Below are positions 8,397-50,906 of a stretch of 64,000 bases of DNA, piece after piece (the stretch's first letter is position 1; the number at the start of each line of letters is the position of its first letter). Source of the stretch: a candidate division WOR-3 bacterium (GTDB lineage Bacteria > Hydrothermota > Hydrothermia > B15-G9 > WFZT01); assembly GCA_027053075.1 (NCBI GenBank), contig JALUEE010000090.1, positions 10,392-74,391 on the forward strand, written 5' to 3'. The notes under the pieces are model-generated. The model saw only the letters and a list, made by a program, of their open reading frames with translations. It was not told the DNA's origin and did not search any database. The position numbers were made by a program, and so were the translations under genes.

Positions 8397-8468
8397 TTTT
8401 CAATCACCTCCAGGGCGTTGATTATAAAGCATTCAACCCGTATTTGGAATGTTTTTATGTGCTTTTTT

Positions 8469-8633
8469 AGGGGTGGCCCGCGCACTCTGTGCGCGGGCCA
8501 CCCCTAAAAAAGAGAGACAACTTTTCAATCAGCCCAACATGAGCTATTTGGCGAACTTCACGTTATTTGGGTTTCCAAAAGGAATCCCCCCATCTATCTC
8601 CTCCCCCCGCATAAATTTGTTCGCGGGGGGAGG
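8469..8633. repeat. pair of GC-rich palindromic units in the divergent rpoZ / TPR-lipoprotein promoter region
   Basis: AGGGGTGGCCCGCGCAC-TCTGT-GTGCGCGGGCCACCCCT (8469-8506) and CTCCTCCCCCCGC-ATAAATTTGTT-CGCGGGGGGAGGA (8598-8633). They share motifs with the repeats at 19.3, 28.1 and 50.4 kb. Confidence 0.6.
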
Positions 8634-8862
8634 ATGAAAGGAGAGGGGCCACATATTAAAGTTTTTTGGATAAAATGAGAGAAAATCTAACAAATTTTCC
8701 CTCACATCCAGTGTATGAGGGTATTTGTCTTAGATTATTAATTTTTCAAGAGAGATCCCTGCGTCTATACTTGCTTTGACAAGCAGTAGAAATCATTAAA
8801 TACACTCTATTTGCAAATGCAGATTATGGAGAATCAAATTTTCCAAATCCTTTTGTTTAACC

Positions 8863-8891
8863 TTGACATTGAACGATGAAAGTGATTACAC
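8863..8891 (+). promoter_or_regulatory. putative sigma70-type promoter for the TPR lipoprotein gene
   Basis: TTGACA, 17-bp spacer, then TTACAC/TACACT, with GGAGG 8 nt before the ATG at 8921. Confidence 0.3.
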
Positions 8892-8920
8892 TAATAAAAA
8901 TTTCCCAGGGAGGTAGAAAG

Positions 8921-10204: not shown

Positions 10205-10713
10205 TGTCCGTTAAAGGAAGGGTACTTGTTTTAAATGGAAACTACGAACCTTTAAATGTAAGCACGGTAAAGAGGGCCGTTACCCTTGTTTATCTGGGGA
10301 AGGCCGAGATAGTTCACAGGTATGATGGCGGGGTATTGCGAGCCGAAAGGCTCGCAATACCCCGCCCAAGTGTTATTAAACTCCGCTACTACATCAAAGT
10401 CAAAAGAAGAGAAATACCCCTCACCAAGAAAAATATTCTCAAAAGGGATAACTACACATGCCAGTACTGTGGCACGACTGAGGGGCCAATGACTGTTGAC
10501 CATGTTATACCCAAAAAATACGGCGGAAAAGATACCTGGGAGAATCTTGTTTGTGCCTGTTTTAAATGCAACAACAAGAAAGGGGATAGAACCCCTGAAC
10601 AGGCTGGGATGAAACTACTCAGAAAACCAAGGAAGCCACACTACTTCCTCTTTATCTTAAACGGTGAGAAAATCCCCGACGAAAAATGGAAACCCTATCT
10701 TTTCATGGTTTGA
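10204..10713 (+). CDS. HNH endonuclease (stand-alone, McrA-like)
   Basis: CQYCG...DHVIPKKYGG...NLVCACFKCNNKKGD is the HNH ββα-Me motif. Its start overlaps the TPR gene stop (TAATG). Confidence 0.8.
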   Translation: MSVKGRVLVLNGNYEPLNVSTVKRAVTLVYLGKAEIVHRYDGGVLRAERLAIPRPSVIKLRYYIKVKRREIPLTKKNILKRDNYTCQYCGTTEGPMTVDHVIPKKYGGKDTWENLVCACFKCNNKKGDRTPEQAGMKLLRKPRKPHYFLFILNGEKIPDEKWKPYLFMV

Positions 10714-17691: not shown

Positions 17692-18421
17692 TTTTCAATT
17701 CCTCCAGAATCTCAGGCAATATTTCTCCTGCCTTGCCCATAAAAGAAAAGTCGGCAATTGCCGTAACAGGTGTTTTTTCAATGTTAACTTCGATTATAAG
17801 AGCTCCCATTTCTTTTGCCTCGAATGGGAGCTGTGCTGCAGGATAGACGACTGCCGACGTGCCTATTACAAAGAAAAATTCGGAATTTCTCGCGATTTCA
17901 AAACTCTTTCTGAGTGCATCGGGTGGTAGCATTTCACCAAACCATACCACGTCAGGCCTGAGAAGTGCACCGCACTCAGGACACCTGGGAAGCTCACCTT
18001 CCCGTATCTCAAAATCAGTGTAAATTTTGCCGCAGCCGGTACATCTGGCACGGAGGAGATTCCCGTGGAGCTCTATAACGTTCTTCGAGCCCGCCTTTTG
18101 ATGGAGATTGTCAACATTCTGAGTGATGGTGTGGAATTCCTCAAAAATGGATTCAAATTCCTTTAAGGTGTAGTGAGCGGGATTTGGTTCAGTGCTTTTG
18201 ACGAGTTTGATACGCCAATTGTACCATTCCCATACCAGTTTGGGGTTTCTCATGAAGGCCTCGGGAGTTGCCAGGTCCTCCGGCCGGTATTTATTCCACA
18301 AACCATCTTTCCCGCGGAAAGTTGGGACGCCGCTCTCACTGGAGACTCCGGCTCCAGTGAGAGCGGCGCCTCTTTTCATTTTACTCAAAATCCTGGCAAG
18401 CTCCCTGATTTTTGGGTTCAT
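17678..18421 (-). CDS. cobB: NAD-dependent protein deacylase (Sir2 family)
   Basis: GAGVSSESGVPTFRG, plus a CxxC...CxxC zinc ribbon. Confidence 0.85.
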   Translation of the reverse strand: MNPKIRELARILSKMKRGAALTGAGVSSESGVPTFRGKDGLWNKYRPEDLATPEAFMRNPKLVWEWYNWRIKLVKSTEPNPAHYTLKEFESIFEEFHTITQNVDNLHQKAGSKNVIELHGNLLRARCTGCGKIYTDFEIREGELPRCPECGALLRPDVVWFGEMLPPDALRKSFEIARNSEFFFVIGTSAVVYPAAQLPFEAKEMGALIIEVNIEKTPVTAIADFSFMGKAGEILPEILEELKNVKD

Positions 18422-18918: not shown

Positions 18919-19159
18919 TCCTCCATTTTTCTATTCTCGTTTTTAGTTTAATAACCACTCATACCACTGTCAAGGATAGGGGGGGCGTTTCTATTCTGCA
19001 CAAGCGGTGTTTATTGTGGGTATTTCTTCATCCTTCGCTTACCTGGTGAGGGCACAGGATTGGTTATTACTCCTGGAAATCAAAGATATGGTAATCATTT
19101 AAACGGGGATTAACGGGTTCTTCACTCGAAAAGATTCCATTATGTAACCCTTTCTCGCT

Positions 19160-19425
19160 CCTTTCCCGTAAGAATTTACACGGGGAGAGGAAGTCTTATC
19201 TAATACCAAATCAAATTGTTGGGCCTACAACTTTTGCTATAGACTGAGTGAATTGCCACATATCAATTCCTGCAAGCACAACCTATGTGCATGGAGCACC
19301 GAAGGCACTTTCTTCATAAGTGAACCCTCTACCCGAAATTGGTAAGAATACTTATCTCCCCCGCGCTTTGCGCGGGGGAAGGCGACGGGTGGGGACATTC
19401 CGCTTAAAAACTATGTAAACAATGT
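19160..19425. repeat. intergenic mosaic repeat copy A
   Basis: GAATTTACACGGGGAGAGGAAGT block (19171-19194), CCCCCGCGC-TTTG-CGCGGGGG palindrome (19356-19378) and ACATTCCGCTTAAAAACTATGTAAAC block (19393-19420). Confidence 0.65.
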
Positions 19426-22895: not shown

Positions 22896-22917
22896 TAATT
22901 TGGGAGATCTTTGAACT

Positions 22918-22962
22918 TAAGTGGGGCGGCACGCTTCGCGTGCCGCCCCACTTAATTTTTCT
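22918..22962 (+). terminator. rho-independent terminator
   Basis: AAGTGGGGCGGCACGC-TTC-GCGTGCCGCCCCACTT followed by AATTTTTCTC. Confidence 0.65.
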
Positions 22963-27973: not shown

Positions 27974-28109
27974 GATTACCTCCTTGTAAATAGTTTAATC
28001 TTCGAGAGAAGGCGTTGCAATAGAGGGTGAATTTATGCGGGAAGGAAAATTTTGTAAGCAGGCATAAGCAATGAGTACTCGAGAGGCTCATCCTGTAAAA
28101 TAAAAAAAG

Positions 28110-28345
28110 AAAATACGCCCCTCTCCCACAAACTTAGTTTGTGGAAGAGGGTGCAGGGAGAAGGTATTCCGCTTGAAAACTTAAAAATCCAAGATGTAAA
28201 CCCTCACCCCACCCCTCTCCCGCGAAGCAGGAGAGGGAGATTTTCAGATTTTTGATTGAAATTTTGTCAGATGTGACCACTAACCTCATTCATATCCCAG
28301 CAGAGAATTTACACGGGGAGAGGAAGTTTATTTTGATGGGGTGTC
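28110..28345. repeat. intergenic mosaic repeat copy B (most complete)
   Basis: CTCTCCCACAAAC-TTAG-GTTTGTGGAAGAG palindrome, GGTATTCCGCTTGAAAACTTAAAAATCCAAGATGTAAACCCTCACCCC block, CCCTCTCC-CGCGAAGCAG-GGAGAGGG palindrome, then GAATTTACACGGGGAGAGGAAGT block. Confidence 0.7.
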
Positions 28346-30197: not shown

Positions 30198-30358
30198 CAG
30201 TCTCCGAATTCTTCGTAAAGTTTCTGATAATCTTCTGTATCAACGACGAATTGATTCAGCTTCTGGTCATCCCGATCGAAGATATTTTGTCTGTAACGTT
30301 GAAAATTTCTACCATTTCTTTTGAGTCTTCTCAGGTTTATGGTATTTTTGAGATTCAT
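30197..30358 (-). CDS. possible 54-aa basic small protein (MNLKNTINLRRLKRNGRNFQRYRQN...), TGATG-coupled to the methyltransferase gene
   Basis: Found by manual translation of the minus strand; below the 60-aa cutoff of the ORF track. Only a weak GAG Shine-Dalgarno. Confidence 0.25.
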   Translation of the reverse strand: MNLKNTINLRRLKRNGRNFQRYRQNIFDRDDQKLNQFVVDTEDYQKLYEEFGD

Positions 30359-30509
30359 TCTCAATTATCGCCGGATTTTATTGATTAATCAAGATTTCGA
30401 GAACGTGTTCGGAAACATCACCTCTGTTTATCCCTTTGTGGGTGTAAGTGGAGTGAGTAGAAAGATGATGTTAAAAATTAAGTAATTCAAGACTTTCCAG
30501 TTTGGACGA

Positions 30510-30720
30510 AACGAAACTCCCTCCCTTCCACTGGAAGGGAGGGCTGGGGTGGAATGGGGGAACAAAATTTCGAAATAATTCATTTTCCCACTCTCCCCTG
30601 GCCTCTCCTTCCTCGAGAAAAGGAGGGAAATTTACGCTGCAATTATCATTGATGGGATTCCGTTAGAAAATGTGGCAATCAAAATTCAGATTTTTCGAAC
30701 AAGCTTGAACCGATGTTTAT
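30510..30720. repeat. intergenic mosaic repeat copy C (long form)
   Basis: CCCTCCCTTCCA-CTGG-AAGGGAGGG perfect palindrome, GGGGTGGAATGG, CTCCCCT...GGAGGGAAATTTAC, GATTCCGTTAGAAAATGTGG and GATTTTTCGAACAAGCTTG blocks. Paralogous to 36484-36745. Confidence 0.7.
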
Positions 30721-32042: not shown

Positions 32043-32758
32043 AAGCATTTATTCTTGCAGCGGGAAAGGGTACACGACTTATGCCATTGACAGCCGAGAT
32101 TCCGAAGGCCCTGCTTGAGTTGAAAGAAGGCCTCACTCCACTGGATTTTCAGCTGAATCTACTCACCAAGTATGGGTTTTCCCCGGCGGATATTTTCATT
32201 ATCGGTGGTTATCGTTTTGAAAAACTCAAGAGATACGGTGAAATTGGAGTCAATCTTGTTTTTAATGAGAAATACGACAGTTTGAACAATATCTACACTT
32301 TTCTGCTTGCTTCAAATTTCACAAACGGTGAAGATTTTTTAATTTTGAATGTTGACACAATTTTTGATGAATCATTGCTCGATGAGCTTATAAAAACACC
32401 AGGAAGTGCAATGGTGGTGGATAACGTCAAGATTCTTGGTGATGAGGAAATGAAGGTCAAGATCGCTGATGGAAGAATTGTGGAGGTCAGTAAATTCATA
32501 CCACCTGAGAATGCCCATGGTGAATACATCGGGATTTCAAAATACTCGCACTCAGAGGCCACAGTGATATTCGACAAAATCAGGGATATGCTTGAAAATG
32601 GCGAGGGGCACAGATGGTATGAGGACGCAATAAATCTTGTTCTCGACAGGGTTGAGATATCACCTGTTTTCACAGAAGGTAAAAAGTGGATTGAAATTGA
32701 TACGCCGCAGGATTTAGAAATAGCGCGGGGGCTTGTTCATGATTTACAGAACGATTAA
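32039..32758 (+). CDS. LicC/IPCT-type alcohol-phosphate cytidylyltransferase (nucleotidyltransferase fold)
   Basis: MKAFILAAGKGTRLMPLT..PKALL, LVFNEKYDSLNNIYTFLL and WIEIDTPQDL are nearly colinear with S. pneumoniae LicC. ATGA overlap with the flippase gene. Confidence 0.8.
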   Translation: MKAFILAAGKGTRLMPLTAEIPKALLELKEGLTPLDFQLNLLTKYGFSPADIFIIGGYRFEKLKRYGEIGVNLVFNEKYDSLNNIYTFLLASNFTNGEDFLILNVDTIFDESLLDELIKTPGSAMVVDNVKILGDEEMKVKIADGRIVEVSKFIPPENAHGEYIGISKYSHSEATVIFDKIRDMLENGEGHRWYEDAINLVLDRVEISPVFTEGKKWIEIDTPQDLEIARGLVHDLQND

Positions 32759-33776
32759 CATTCCGGTTTTTCTGGAAATCGGTGAGGGTATCCTTGAAGA
32801 CTTTAATGGAATTTTAAAAAAACATAATCTCTCCTTTTCTCGTCCATTGATTCTCACAGGTGAGAAAAGCTCAAAAGTTCTTGCAGGATTTGATTTTTTT
32901 AATAGATTTGAAAAGCTATTCATCCGGGAAAACGACCTTGAAACTTTGCTCGTGATAAAAAGTGACATTTACGGTAAAGGTTACGATCTGTTACTCGCGT
33001 GCGGAGGTGGAAGGGTAATTGATAGTGGAAAGTTTCTCTCCCTCGAGACTTCCCTGCCACTTGTTGCTATTCCAACAATCTTATCGAGCGACAGCGTGTC
33101 ATCGCCAATAAGTATTCTTAAAGATAACCATGGAACGAGGAGCATGGGGACAGTTATGCCAATGGGGGTTTTAATTGATGTACAGATAATCAGGACTTCG
33201 CCCGAGATTTACCTAAAAGCGGGATTGGGTGACCTTATGTCCAATCTGTCATCTGCTTATGACTGGGAGCTTGCTTACAAACGAGGTTTTGAAAGAATCG
33301 ATAACTTCTCGAGGATGCTCGCCCTTTTGCCCGCTCAGCGGATTCTTCTCAAAACCGATGGGTACAAGGGGTTAAAAGACGAGGAGCTACTTGCTGATCT
33401 TGCCGAAGGACTGGTGCTCAGCGGAATTTCAATGGCTATAGCCGGGAGTTCAAGGCCTGCCAGTGGAAGTGAGCACAATATCAGCCATAGCCTTGACAGG
33501 ATACTCGGGCAGCAAAAGAAACTTCACGGGCTGCAGGTAGGACTTGCTACCGTTCTTACCCTAATTCTTCAGGGGAATAGAGAGCAGGCCGATGTGCTTT
33601 CGCAATTGTATAAGAAGACTGGCTTCCCTTTGAATTTAAAGGAGCTTGATATCTCCTGTGAAGATTTCGAGAAGGCCCTTGAAATAGCACCAGGCCTGAG
33701 AGACAGATATACTGTCCTTAATGAAATCCCTATTGAGGAGCTGAAAGAAGTCGCAAGAGCCAGACTCTGCAAGTAA
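32733..33776 (+). CDS. egsA: sn-glycerol-1-phosphate dehydrogenase (EgsA/AraM family)
   Basis: GGGRVIDSGK, PTILSSDSVSSP, GLGDLMSNLSSAYDWELAYK and SSRPASGSEHNISHSLD match the archaeal G1PDH motif set; 347 aa. Overlaps the cytidylyltransferase gene by 26 nt. Confidence 0.8.
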   Translation: MFMIYRTINIPVFLEIGEGILEDFNGILKKHNLSFSRPLILTGEKSSKVLAGFDFFNRFEKLFIRENDLETLLVIKSDIYGKGYDLLLACGGGRVIDSGKFLSLETSLPLVAIPTILSSDSVSSPISILKDNHGTRSMGTVMPMGVLIDVQIIRTSPEIYLKAGLGDLMSNLSSAYDWELAYKRGFERIDNFSRMLALLPAQRILLKTDGYKGLKDEELLADLAEGLVLSGISMAIAGSSRPASGSEHNISHSLDRILGQQKKLHGLQVGLATVLTLILQGNREQADVLSQLYKKTGFPLNLKELDISCEDFEKALEIAPGLRDRYTVLNEIPIEELKEVARARLCK

Positions 33777-36171: not shown

Positions 36172-36243
36172 CTGGGGGGCAGGGATTCGAACCCCGACTA
36201 CCTGATCCAGAGTCAGGCGTCCTGCCGGTTAGACGACCCCCCA
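36172..36243 (-). tRNA. tRNA-Gln (anticodon CUG)
   Basis: U1-A72 acceptor pair, anticodon stem CCUGA/UCAGG, loop CUCUGGA, T-loop TTCGAAT; hand-folded. Confidence 0.7.
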
Positions 36244-36250
36244 AAATTTT

Positions 36251-36328
36251 TGGCAGCGCCACCGGGATTTGAACCCGGGTCTCCTGGCTGAGAACCAGGT
36301 ATCCTAGGCCGGACTAGACGATGGCGCC
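36251..36328 (-). tRNA. tRNA-Glu (anticodon CUC), CCA encoded
   Basis: UCGUCUAG D-arm as in tRNA-Glu, anticodon stem CCUGG/CCAGG, loop UUCUCAG, T-loop TTCAAAT; hand-folded. Confidence 0.7.
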
Positions 36329-36483
36329 GCGTGAAAGTGCTATATTTATAAACCACCACCCCATACCTGTCAATAGGAGGGGGTGTGTTTGAAAATGTTC
36401 CCCTGGTTATTTTGTAGCTATAGGTTAATAGATTGATCAGAAAAGTGAGGTTAAACAAGTTTCCTTAAGCATGTTAAGTAGCA

Positions 36484-36745
36484 AACTCCCTCCCTTCCGC
36501 TGGAAGGGAGGGTTGGGGTGGAATGGATAAATTTAATGATATCACTGTATGTTCTGAAATATCACTCCATTAGATATTCTAAATCTAAAGATTGTTAATC
36601 TTACCCCCATTCTCCCCTAACCCCTCCTTCCCCGGGGAAGGAGGGGAAATTTACCGACTGGTTTGCGATAATTAATGGAATTTTAAGAATCTTAAAAAGT
36701 GGAACTTAAATCGAGGATTTTTCGAACAGGCTCGTAGGAGGGGAG
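36484..36745. repeat. intergenic mosaic repeat copy D (long form with ~80-nt insertion)
   Basis: CCCTCCCTTCC-GC-TGGAAGGGAGGG, GGGGTGGAATGG, CCCTCCTTCCCC/GGGGAAGGAGGG 24-nt perfect palindrome, GGGGAAATTTACC and GATTTTTCGAACAGGCTCG. Confidence 0.7.
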
Positions 36746-37018
36746 TGTGTTTGAATAATTCCAACCCTAAAGATTGGTACCTGTAAGAAAGGTACATGTG
36801 ACTACTTTCTTTGTTTTGCCTGACTCTTAGGGTTGTGCAACCAGATATTCTTCTTCCGCAAAAAATTTATGCGAAGAGAGGAATTTCTTCGTGTAATTAG
36901 CAATGTATTTTTGAACTTGACGCAGGAGACTGGATTCAAAAATATTAAAAATTTTTAAATACCCGGCTTCTCTGTCACCTTTCACCCTCATTGAGGGGAC
37001 AATTGGGTTGACTTATAA

Positions 37019-49492: not shown

Positions 49493-50265
49493 TTAAAGCA
49501 ATAGGAATTGATGTAGGTTCAACAACGGCAAAGATTGTAGGAGTTAACGAGGGTGGGGACTTTGTGTGGAGCTATATTGAACCTGCCGACCCAAGGGTAG
49601 AGGACCAGGTGGAGAGGTTTCTCGAGAAGGTCAGGGAAGTGGCAGGTTCCATTGAAGGAATTCCCATAGTGGCAACAGGTTATGGAAGAAACCTTGTCCA
49701 TCAGGCAACGAAGAAGGTGACAGAAATCACCTGCCATGCGCGCGGGGTTTTCAAGCAGCTTGGCCATGGTGGAACGCTTGTGGATATTGGTGGACAGGAC
49801 AGTAAGGTGATTGTAATAGGGCCGCATGGAGAGGTGGTGGATTTCACCATGAACGACAAGTGCGCCGCAGGGACAGGAAGATTTCTTGAAAATACTGCCG
49901 GAAGGCTCAGGGTGAAGCTCGAAGAGATGGGGAGTGTGGCCCTCTCTGCTCCTGAAGAGGTGAAAATTTCCAGTACGTGTACGGTTTTTGCTGAATCTGA
50001 GATTATTTCAATGATTGCTCATGGTGTGAGGGTTGAGCCCATTTTAAAGGGGCTTCACAGGTCCCTTGTGAAGCGAATTGTTGCCATGATTAGAAGTGTG
50101 GGGCTGGTGCCTCCATTGATGCTGTCCGGGGGAGTAGTAAAAAACCCGGCAATAAGGAAGATGATTGAGGAAGAAACGGGAGAGAAGGTAATTTTACCCG
50201 AGCACCCGCAGTTCATGGGCGCCTACGGCGCCGCCTTGATAGGATTGAAGTTGGGGAAAGGGTAG
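49489..50265 (+). CDS. CoA-substrate-specific enzyme activase (BadF/BadG/BcrA/BcrD/HgdC ATPase)
   Basis: [14 protein letters not shown]-terminal ASKHA motif and [12 protein letters not shown]; ATGA overlap. Confidence 0.85.
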
Positions 50266-50364
50266 GCAAATTAGGAGAATTATTAAATTCAAAGAATTTT
50301 GTTTACTTTCCTGAGAGTTATTTGGTTATAGCAATCCCCATTGGAAATTATAAAATATAGCCCC

Positions 50365-50665
50365 TCACCTTGCCTCTCCCCGCAAAGAATTTATGCGGGG
50401 AGAGGAAGTTTTTGGGTGTAGGAGTAATTGATTGAACATGCAAACGGAGCGCATAGGCTAAATGAATTTCCACCTGTACATCCCTGCAATCACAATATAA
50501 ATTACCAGAAAACCAAGTAGAACCTTTCTAACAAGCGAAACTTGTTTCCCCCAACAACACAAAATATTTCCCTCCCCTGCGCTTTGCGCTGGGGAGGGTG
50601 AGGGAGGGGTATTCCGCTTGAAATCTTGAAATTACATATCTAAACCATCACCCTTACCCCCTTCT
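50365..50665. repeat. intergenic mosaic repeat copy E
   Basis: CCTCTCCCCGC-AAAGAATTTAT-GCGGGGAGAGG palindrome with embedded GAATTTATGCGGGGAGAGGAAGT block, CCCTCCCCTGCGC-TTTG-CGCTGGGGAGGG palindrome, then GGTATTCCGCTTGAAATCTTGAAATTACATATCTAAACCATCACCC block. Confidence 0.7.
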
Positions 50666-50906
50666 GCTAAGCTGAAGAGGTAGATAGATTTTTCCTCAAA
50701 ACTTTTGAAATGTAGCCTCTTTCCTCAACCCTCTTAAACAAATTTTTGTGGGAAAAGTTTTTTATAAAATCGTCAACCTGTTTGAGCCCCCTCGTTTAGA
50801 CGCTTCCTCGTAATTATGCGCCCCAATTTACACTGTAGCAAATTCAACAATGTGCACCAATAGAAACCCGGTTGTTTGTGCCATCGGTGGAAATTATCAT
50901 ATCAAT

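Follow-up and report, generated by a model that had tools for sequence, protein, structure and literature searches.

The two repeat copies located in divergent intergenic regions of the 64,000-nt stretch of WOR-3 DNA analysed here (hereafter, the window), i.e. copy C at 30401-30706 and copy D at 36383-36734 of the + strand, are, with a probability of roughly 90%, copies of a lineage-specific, non-coding MITE of ~350 nt that is mobilised in trans. Copy D is a recent insertion that is missing from sister strains, and copy C is an old, decaying copy; the family to which both belong is specific to a narrow WOR-3 (Caldifarciminota) lineage, and the body between the termini is swappable among its members. 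The preliminary description of this DNA had proposed either a mobile MITE or a shared regulatory cassette: the termini, the 9-bp duplications, the at least 35 copies and an exact site without D speak for the former, while the latter has not been sustained by our comparisons.

The two copies had been described as sharing an ordered series of blocks beyond a common palindrome, and this has been borne out: the same blocks in the same order are recovered by the alignment of C with D and by the repeat families, and the homology extends well outside the palindrome, so the reading in which only the palindrome is shared fails. The palindrome, CCCTCCCTTCC-NN-TGGAAGGGAGGG, is located at 30519-30543 in C and at 36488-36512 in D, with 0 occurrences expected in shuffled sequences; the perfect 12-bp arms attributed to it are found in C (12-nt arms, one central base), while D has 11-nt arms and a 3-nt loop. 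The hairpin hp1 and its G-rich tail are identical at 42 of 44 positions, a 49-nt block that comprises the C-rich segment, the hairpin hp2 and AAATTTAC is 80% identical, and the right-end block, ending in GATTTTTCGAACARGCT, is 74% identical. The mean column identity of C and D is also 74%, hence the earlier term “near-identical” is too strong.

The coordinates given earlier located both copies but covered them only partially: a family profile built from 17 members (nhmmer) covers D end to end (36383-36733, E=7.5e-88) and C likewise (30402-30705, E=6e-61, model positions 2-377), giving sizes of 352 nt for D and 306 nt for C, where ~50 nt of the middle loop, present in D and in most family members, are missing. 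Neither copy contains an ORF of 60 aa or more, and one ORF (36213-36458), which spans tRNA genes, overlaps the left edge of D. The gene context and the divergent position of both copies have been confirmed as first described: C is flanked by a − strand methyltransferase/Nitro_FeMo-Co/radical-SAM operon and a + strand Polysacc_synt/NTP_transferase/Fe-ADH_2/radical-SAM operon, and D by the − strand tRNA-Glu, tRNA-Gln and guaB genes and the + strand tatC gene. As an observation on the surroundings of C, the putative egsA gene (32733-33776) has Pfam matches to Fe-ADH_2/Fe-ADH only, and it shares its operon with a nucleotidyl transferase, a flippase-like protein and a radical-SAM enzyme.

The alignment of 17 long copies gives the order of the parts of the element: the left end, GAGCCTGTTCGAAAATG, is followed by a left arm of ~90-105 nt and by hp1 with its tail (core unit U1); a loop of 70-90 nt leads to the C-rich segment and hp2 (core unit U2, inverted), after which a right arm of ~70 nt, starting with AAATTTACCGACTGG, runs to the right end, GGATTTTTCGAACAAGCTC. 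The ends are terminal inverted repeats of 16-17 nt, GAGCYTGTTCGAAAAT / ATTTTCGAACARGCTC, at which the similarity among the 17 copies halts; 185 kb of WOR-3 loci contain 36 instances of the terminus motif, compared with 0 in shuffled sequences. The core, consisting of two hairpin-plus-tail units in inverted orientation, also folds as a single long hairpin. The same termini enclose shorter relatives of ~120 and ~285 nt with other hairpin modules, fragments of which occupy the other long intergenic regions of the window.

In D, an intact long-form copy according to nhmmer and to the empty sites of two sister strains, the left terminal inverted repeat GTGTGTTTGAAAATG (36383-36397) and the right terminal inverted repeat GATTTTTCGAACAGGCTC (36716-36733) enclose U1 at 36488-36526 (hp1 with 11-nt arms and the loop GCT, followed by the tail TTGGGGTGGAATGG) and the inverted U2 at 36604-36646 (the C-rich CCCCCATTCTCCCCTAA and hp2, CCCCTCCTTCCCCGGGGAAGGAGGGG), all on the + strand. 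In C, which is full-length according to nhmmer but decayed, with the middle loop deleted internally, the corresponding + strand elements are a decayed left terminal inverted repeat GAACGTGTTCGGAAACA (30401-30417) that aligns to the left end of the family, U1 at 30519-30562 (hp1, CCCTCCCTTCC-ACT-GGAAGGGAGGG, and the G-rich tail CTGGGGTGGAATGGGGGAA), the inverted U2 at 30585-30628 and the right terminal inverted repeat GATTTTTCGAACAAGCTT (30689-30706). The assignment of U2 in C, i.e. of hp2 and of a C-rich segment paired to the tail, is based on the fold and on the comparison with the orthologous locus L048, relative to which hp2 of C has decayed through non-compensatory changes; L048 retains GTGTTCGAAAAT at the left terminal inverted repeat. 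In both copies, the 3' arm of hp1 and the tail, GGGAGGGYTGGGGTGGAATGGG (30533-30562 and 36502-36526), carry three to four G-runs, which, judging by the sequence, could form a G-quadruplex that competes with the hairpin.

The mobility of the family is seen at its insertion sites. The 9-bp flanks of 19 end-pairs are identical at 9/9 positions in 8 pairs, at 8/9 in 3 and at 7/9 in 4, i.e. 15/19 reach at least 7/9, compared with 3.5% of the mismatched-flank controls. The flanking direct repeats that the preliminary description had suggested looking for are found at D, which has the 9-bp TAGGAGGGG on both sides (36374-36382 and 36735-36743), while no target duplication is recognisable in the flanks of C, checked partly by eye. 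In the sister strains L067 (97% nucleotide identity to the window) and L064 (95.5%), TGTCAA-TAGGAGGGG-AGTGTGTTTGAATAAT is continuous: in place of the two copies of TAGGAGGGG with 352 nt between them that are seen in the window, these strains have TAGGAGGGG once and lack both D and one copy of the duplication. A second filled/empty pair occurs among near-identical WOR-3 MAG contigs, with L023 being filled by a 124-nt member and L011 and L054 being empty. Two more distant loci, L039 and L041 (85-86% guaB identity), which contain no C/D-type sequence, were also considered as empty sites; they are not clean ones, because their synteny differs.

Copy D has been inserted right against the left end of a resident, short “X-type” relative (36743-36921, + strand), which has like ends (GAGTGTGTTTGAATAAT ... 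GTATTTTTGAACTTGAC) and an X hairpin at 36850-36883, and which is also present in the D-empty allele of L067. The duplication of a new insertion directly abuts the end of a resident copy in three cases (D, L008 and L023), and such insertions against resident ends would explain the long, repeat-filled intergenic arrays. On its other side, the target duplication of D begins 1 nt past the −35 hexamer of a promoter-like motif, TTGACA-17-TATAAA (36345-36373, − strand), located upstream of the tRNA-Glu/Gln genes; this motif, which was read from the sequence and is also conserved ahead of the tRNA genes of L039 and L042, is a putative promoter.

Copy C is in decay. Its ortholog in L048 is ~92% identical, the figure for the whole aligned block, coding DNA included, being 94.5%, and its termini have decayed differently in the window and in L048, each lineage losing a different one. 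At the same site, L064 agrees with L048 in its flanks and in the decayed right end of the copy but encloses a different body, from which it follows that bodies are exchanged between copies. The locus L059 is orthologous to 49769-50429 of the window (89% identity) and continues, past the X hairpin, with a C-like element and different genes, i.e. from 50430 onwards synteny breaks at the repeats. Upstream of C, two further differences have been observed: a 53-codon ORF in the NCBI MAG (30198-30359) seems to be what is left of an ORF of 139 aa, of which L064 has the intact form, and L048 has ~290 nt that are absent from the window between 30323 and 30345.

Four other regions of the window contain relatives of the family: a fragment of a short member at 8547-8670, with an X hairpin at 8598-8635 (nhmmer E=2e-8; 95% identity over 61 nt to L006), and three related mosaic repeats on the + strand, namely “A” at 19150-19425 (an X-like motif and a hairpin with a G-rich tail), “B” at 28105-28330 (two hairpins, a G-rich/C-rich pair, TATTCCGCTTGAAAAC and an X-like motif, 79-84% identical to WOR-3 MAG loci) and “E” at 50340-50690 (an X hairpin at 50371-50407 and a Y module). 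Hairpins of another kind, perfect, GC-rich and 17-24 bp long, are located at 2157-2197, 8461-8513, 10326-10367, 18326-18370 and 22914-22958; those at 8461-8513 and 22914-22958 have A-run/T-run flanks and stand at gene ends, and the group looks like bidirectional intrinsic terminators that would be unrelated to the MITE family. A separate repeat family of similar style is found in L039 (GCA_964571845.1, 86% guaB identity), where 1-690 and 8400-8900 hold tandem arrays of ~37-nt units, each a CCCCTCC...GGGGAGG hairpin with a variable centre and the spacer ATTGTCTTTCAAA.

The distribution of the family has been examined with the 21-nt core GGGAGGGNTGGGGTGGAATGG, which we have searched for in 185,579 species-representative genomes (one per GTDB species). 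There are 35 exact matches, on both strands of 34 contigs, in one WOR-3 (Caldifarciminota) MAG, JALXCE01, and none besides one chance match elsewhere among these representatives; a related WOR-3 genome therefore holds at least 35 dispersed copies. In the JGI metagenome scan, true family members are found only in Ga0256831 and Ga0256832 (10 contigs), and the remaining nine core matches are without hp1. The scan of IMG/VR for the same 21-nt core gave 0 matches, distant BLAST searches of a plasmid collection, with D and with the consensus of the short element, gave no match, and nothing relevant was retrieved when the full-text literature was searched for WOR-3 MITEs or the terminus sequence. As to the host, GCA_015489415.1, the ENA assembly REYS20-1 and a Logan assembly each contain a guaB protein identical to that of the window, the named guaB relatives at ~63% identity are from WOR-3, now Caldifarciminota, and no clear orthologs of the window genes are found in the sampled WOR-3 MAG loci.

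We propose that a DDE-type transposase encoded elsewhere would bind the terminal repeats and insert the MITE through 9-bp staggered cuts, and that the copies would then decay, C being an example; the palindromes would be the internal core of the element, rather than a regulatory site of the host. Our search for an autonomous partner in ~215 kb of family-bearing DNA has found no pair of ends at a spacing of 0.6-3.5 kb and no terminus with a transposase next to it, and an all-versus-all comparison of ORFs, together with the ORFs at contig ends and the DNA inward of solitary termini, has yielded only an unrelated IS3-family element. The latter is located beside U1 at two sites (L013 7530-7937 and L034 5615-6189), both copies reaching contig ends; its OrfA carries HTH_Tnp_1, an A-run forms a slippery site, and its ends, starting with TGTCCCGTCCTGATATATG, differ from the MITE termini. 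In another locus (L047 1224-1837), a gene for a 144-aa DUF559 protein (Vsr-like endonuclease fold), whose C-terminus runs into a repeat, is located between two U1 units of the same orientation; this is a single case. The identity of the mobiliser is suggested by the termini: IS903B has the inverted repeat GGCTTTGTTGAATAAATC and a 9-bp direct repeat, CTCAGATGC (PMC10569121). The terminus GAGCTTGTTCGAAAATTC is identical to this inverted repeat at 11/18 positions, ungapped, a comparison for which IS903 was picked post hoc among several families. Given the 9-bp duplication and the 11/18 terminal identity, our best guess for the mobiliser, offered as a lead, would be an enzyme of the IS5 family (IS903 group).

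The alternative in which the repeat is a shared cis-regulatory cassette, i.e. a set of promoters or operators that drive or coordinate the divergent operons on either side, draws on the location of C and D in divergent intergenic regions with the same orientation to the + strand operon, and on the target duplication of D, which adjoins the −35 hexamer of the promoter-like motif ahead of the tRNA genes. However, the copies of the family, all of them intergenic, are oriented at random with respect to the downstream gene (8 same, 7 opposite), the promoter scan within the elements is at or below shuffle expectation, the strains without D retain the same tRNA and tatC genes, one strain has a different body between the same ends at the C site, and the C ortholog shows no more conservation than the coding DNA beside it; we consider this alternative very unlikely. 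Scans of both intergenic regions for Sigma-70 promoters and terminators have also remained at shuffle level, hp1 on the − strand giving the sole weak terminator score. The insertions may nevertheless have a secondary effect on neighbouring promoters. It is extremely improbable that the repeat is a multicopy structured non-coding RNA gene or an RNA motif with a three-hairpin domain: the folds are more stable than those of shuffled sequences (z = −3.3 for C, −2.6 for D and down to −6.6 for relatives) and one compensatory change, from C-G to U-A, separates C and D in the middle stem, yet the covariation term of RNAalifold is −0.35 kcal/mol with most pairs invariant, neither strand folds consistently better (9/13 copies, mean 1.8 kcal/mol), and the random orientation to the downstream gene applies here as well. 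The consensus fold of RNAalifold is one long imperfect palindrome, and Rfam yields 3 tRNAs in the window at the gathering score, to which permissive E-values add only miRNA-hairpin noise.

A further alternative concerns the core units, which would be of the REP/REPIN or BIME type, i.e. hairpin-plus-tail units spread by a RAYT (Y1 HUH) enzyme, with the terminal repeats being incidental. U1 and U2 always form oppositely oriented pairs, ~90-130 nt apart, that occur in a convergent or in a second, divergent arrangement with conserved spacers, in other terminus-bounded frames as well, and within mosaics with other hairpin units; the IS3-family element has been inserted beside them twice, which recalls IS1397 in the BIMEs of E. 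coli. The core is also better conserved than the termini, with values above 0.9 for the 5' arm of hp1, 0.9 for the C-rich segment and 0.8-0.9 for hp2, against ~0.7 for the termini and the arms, but the core is partly fixed by the search pattern, which makes the size of this effect uncertain. Against this alternative, which we regard as having very little chance of being correct, stand the terminal inverted repeats and the 9-bp target duplications of the insertions, neither of which Y1 enzymes are known to produce in HUH transposition; moreover, the polymorphic unit in D and in L023 is the whole terminus-bounded element rather than the hairpin pair, no RAYT gene occurs among the multi-copy or contig-end ORFs of the fetched loci, and no GTAG is located immediately 5' of the palindrome. 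We have likewise rejected an IS200/IS605-derived PATE, which would have subterminal hairpins, no inverted repeats and no duplication: here, ~105 nt lie between the left end and the hairpins and ~88 nt between the hairpins and the right end, with both inverted repeats and a target duplication being present.

Within the MITE reading, a better-kept core is unusual and hints at some constraint on it. It is conceivable, although rather unlikely, that the GC-rich U1/U2 core is a separately selected cassette that is exchanged between terminus-bounded frames, either because the element needs it to spread, e.g. as an additional site for protein binding or synapsis, or because the thermophilic host has exapted it in a structural role or as an insulator or terminator; the family would then be a hybrid of a MITE and a REPIN/BIME-like mosaic.

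The retention of the D-empty site by sister strains marks the repeat as ordinary selfish DNA and not as a common gene switch, and the absence of D from strains that are 95-97% identical shows that transposition is ongoing in an uncultivated hydrothermal WOR-3 (Caldifarciminota) population. The MITE family accounts for the handful of 400-700-nt intergenic regions with CCCTCC/GGGAGG hairpins in an otherwise compact genome, as well as for the breaks of the assemblies of this lineage at these regions. Its filled and empty sites can be used as strain markers, and D, with 1 nt between it and the −35 hexamer of the promoter-like tRNA motif and with tatC 285 nt downstream, offers a natural experiment on whether an insertion alters expression.

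Among known systems, the REPINs and BIMEs of Pseudomonas and E. coli resemble the WOR-3 family in their inverted pairs of short imperfect palindromes with conserved spacers, in their mosaics, in their exclusively intergenic location and in the IS3-family element that inserts alongside; REPINs, however, are associated with a RAYT gene and have neither terminal inverted repeats nor target duplications, whereas the WOR-3 elements are terminus-bounded and have a 9-bp duplication, with no RAYT seen in the fetched loci. The Correia elements (CREE) of Neisseria are terminus-bounded, high-copy intergenic repeats of ~100-150 nt, often promoter-adjacent, that form long hairpins when transcribed, have 26-nt inverted repeats and duplicate TA. 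The WOR-3 family shares with them the terminus-bounded, high-copy, intergenic character, but it duplicates 9 bp, has sizes of ~120, 285 and 350 nt and has no sequence similarity to them. From the MITEs of the IS5 family (IS903 group), the WOR-3 family differs in that an IS903-like transposase with these ends was not found in the ~215 kb, in its host, an uncultivated thermophile lineage, and in its conserved GC-rich double-hairpin core, with internal modules being shuffled between copies; with these same MITEs it has in common that the elements are short, non-coding, high-copy and intergenic, and that they have inverted repeats at their ends and duplicate 9 bp of target.
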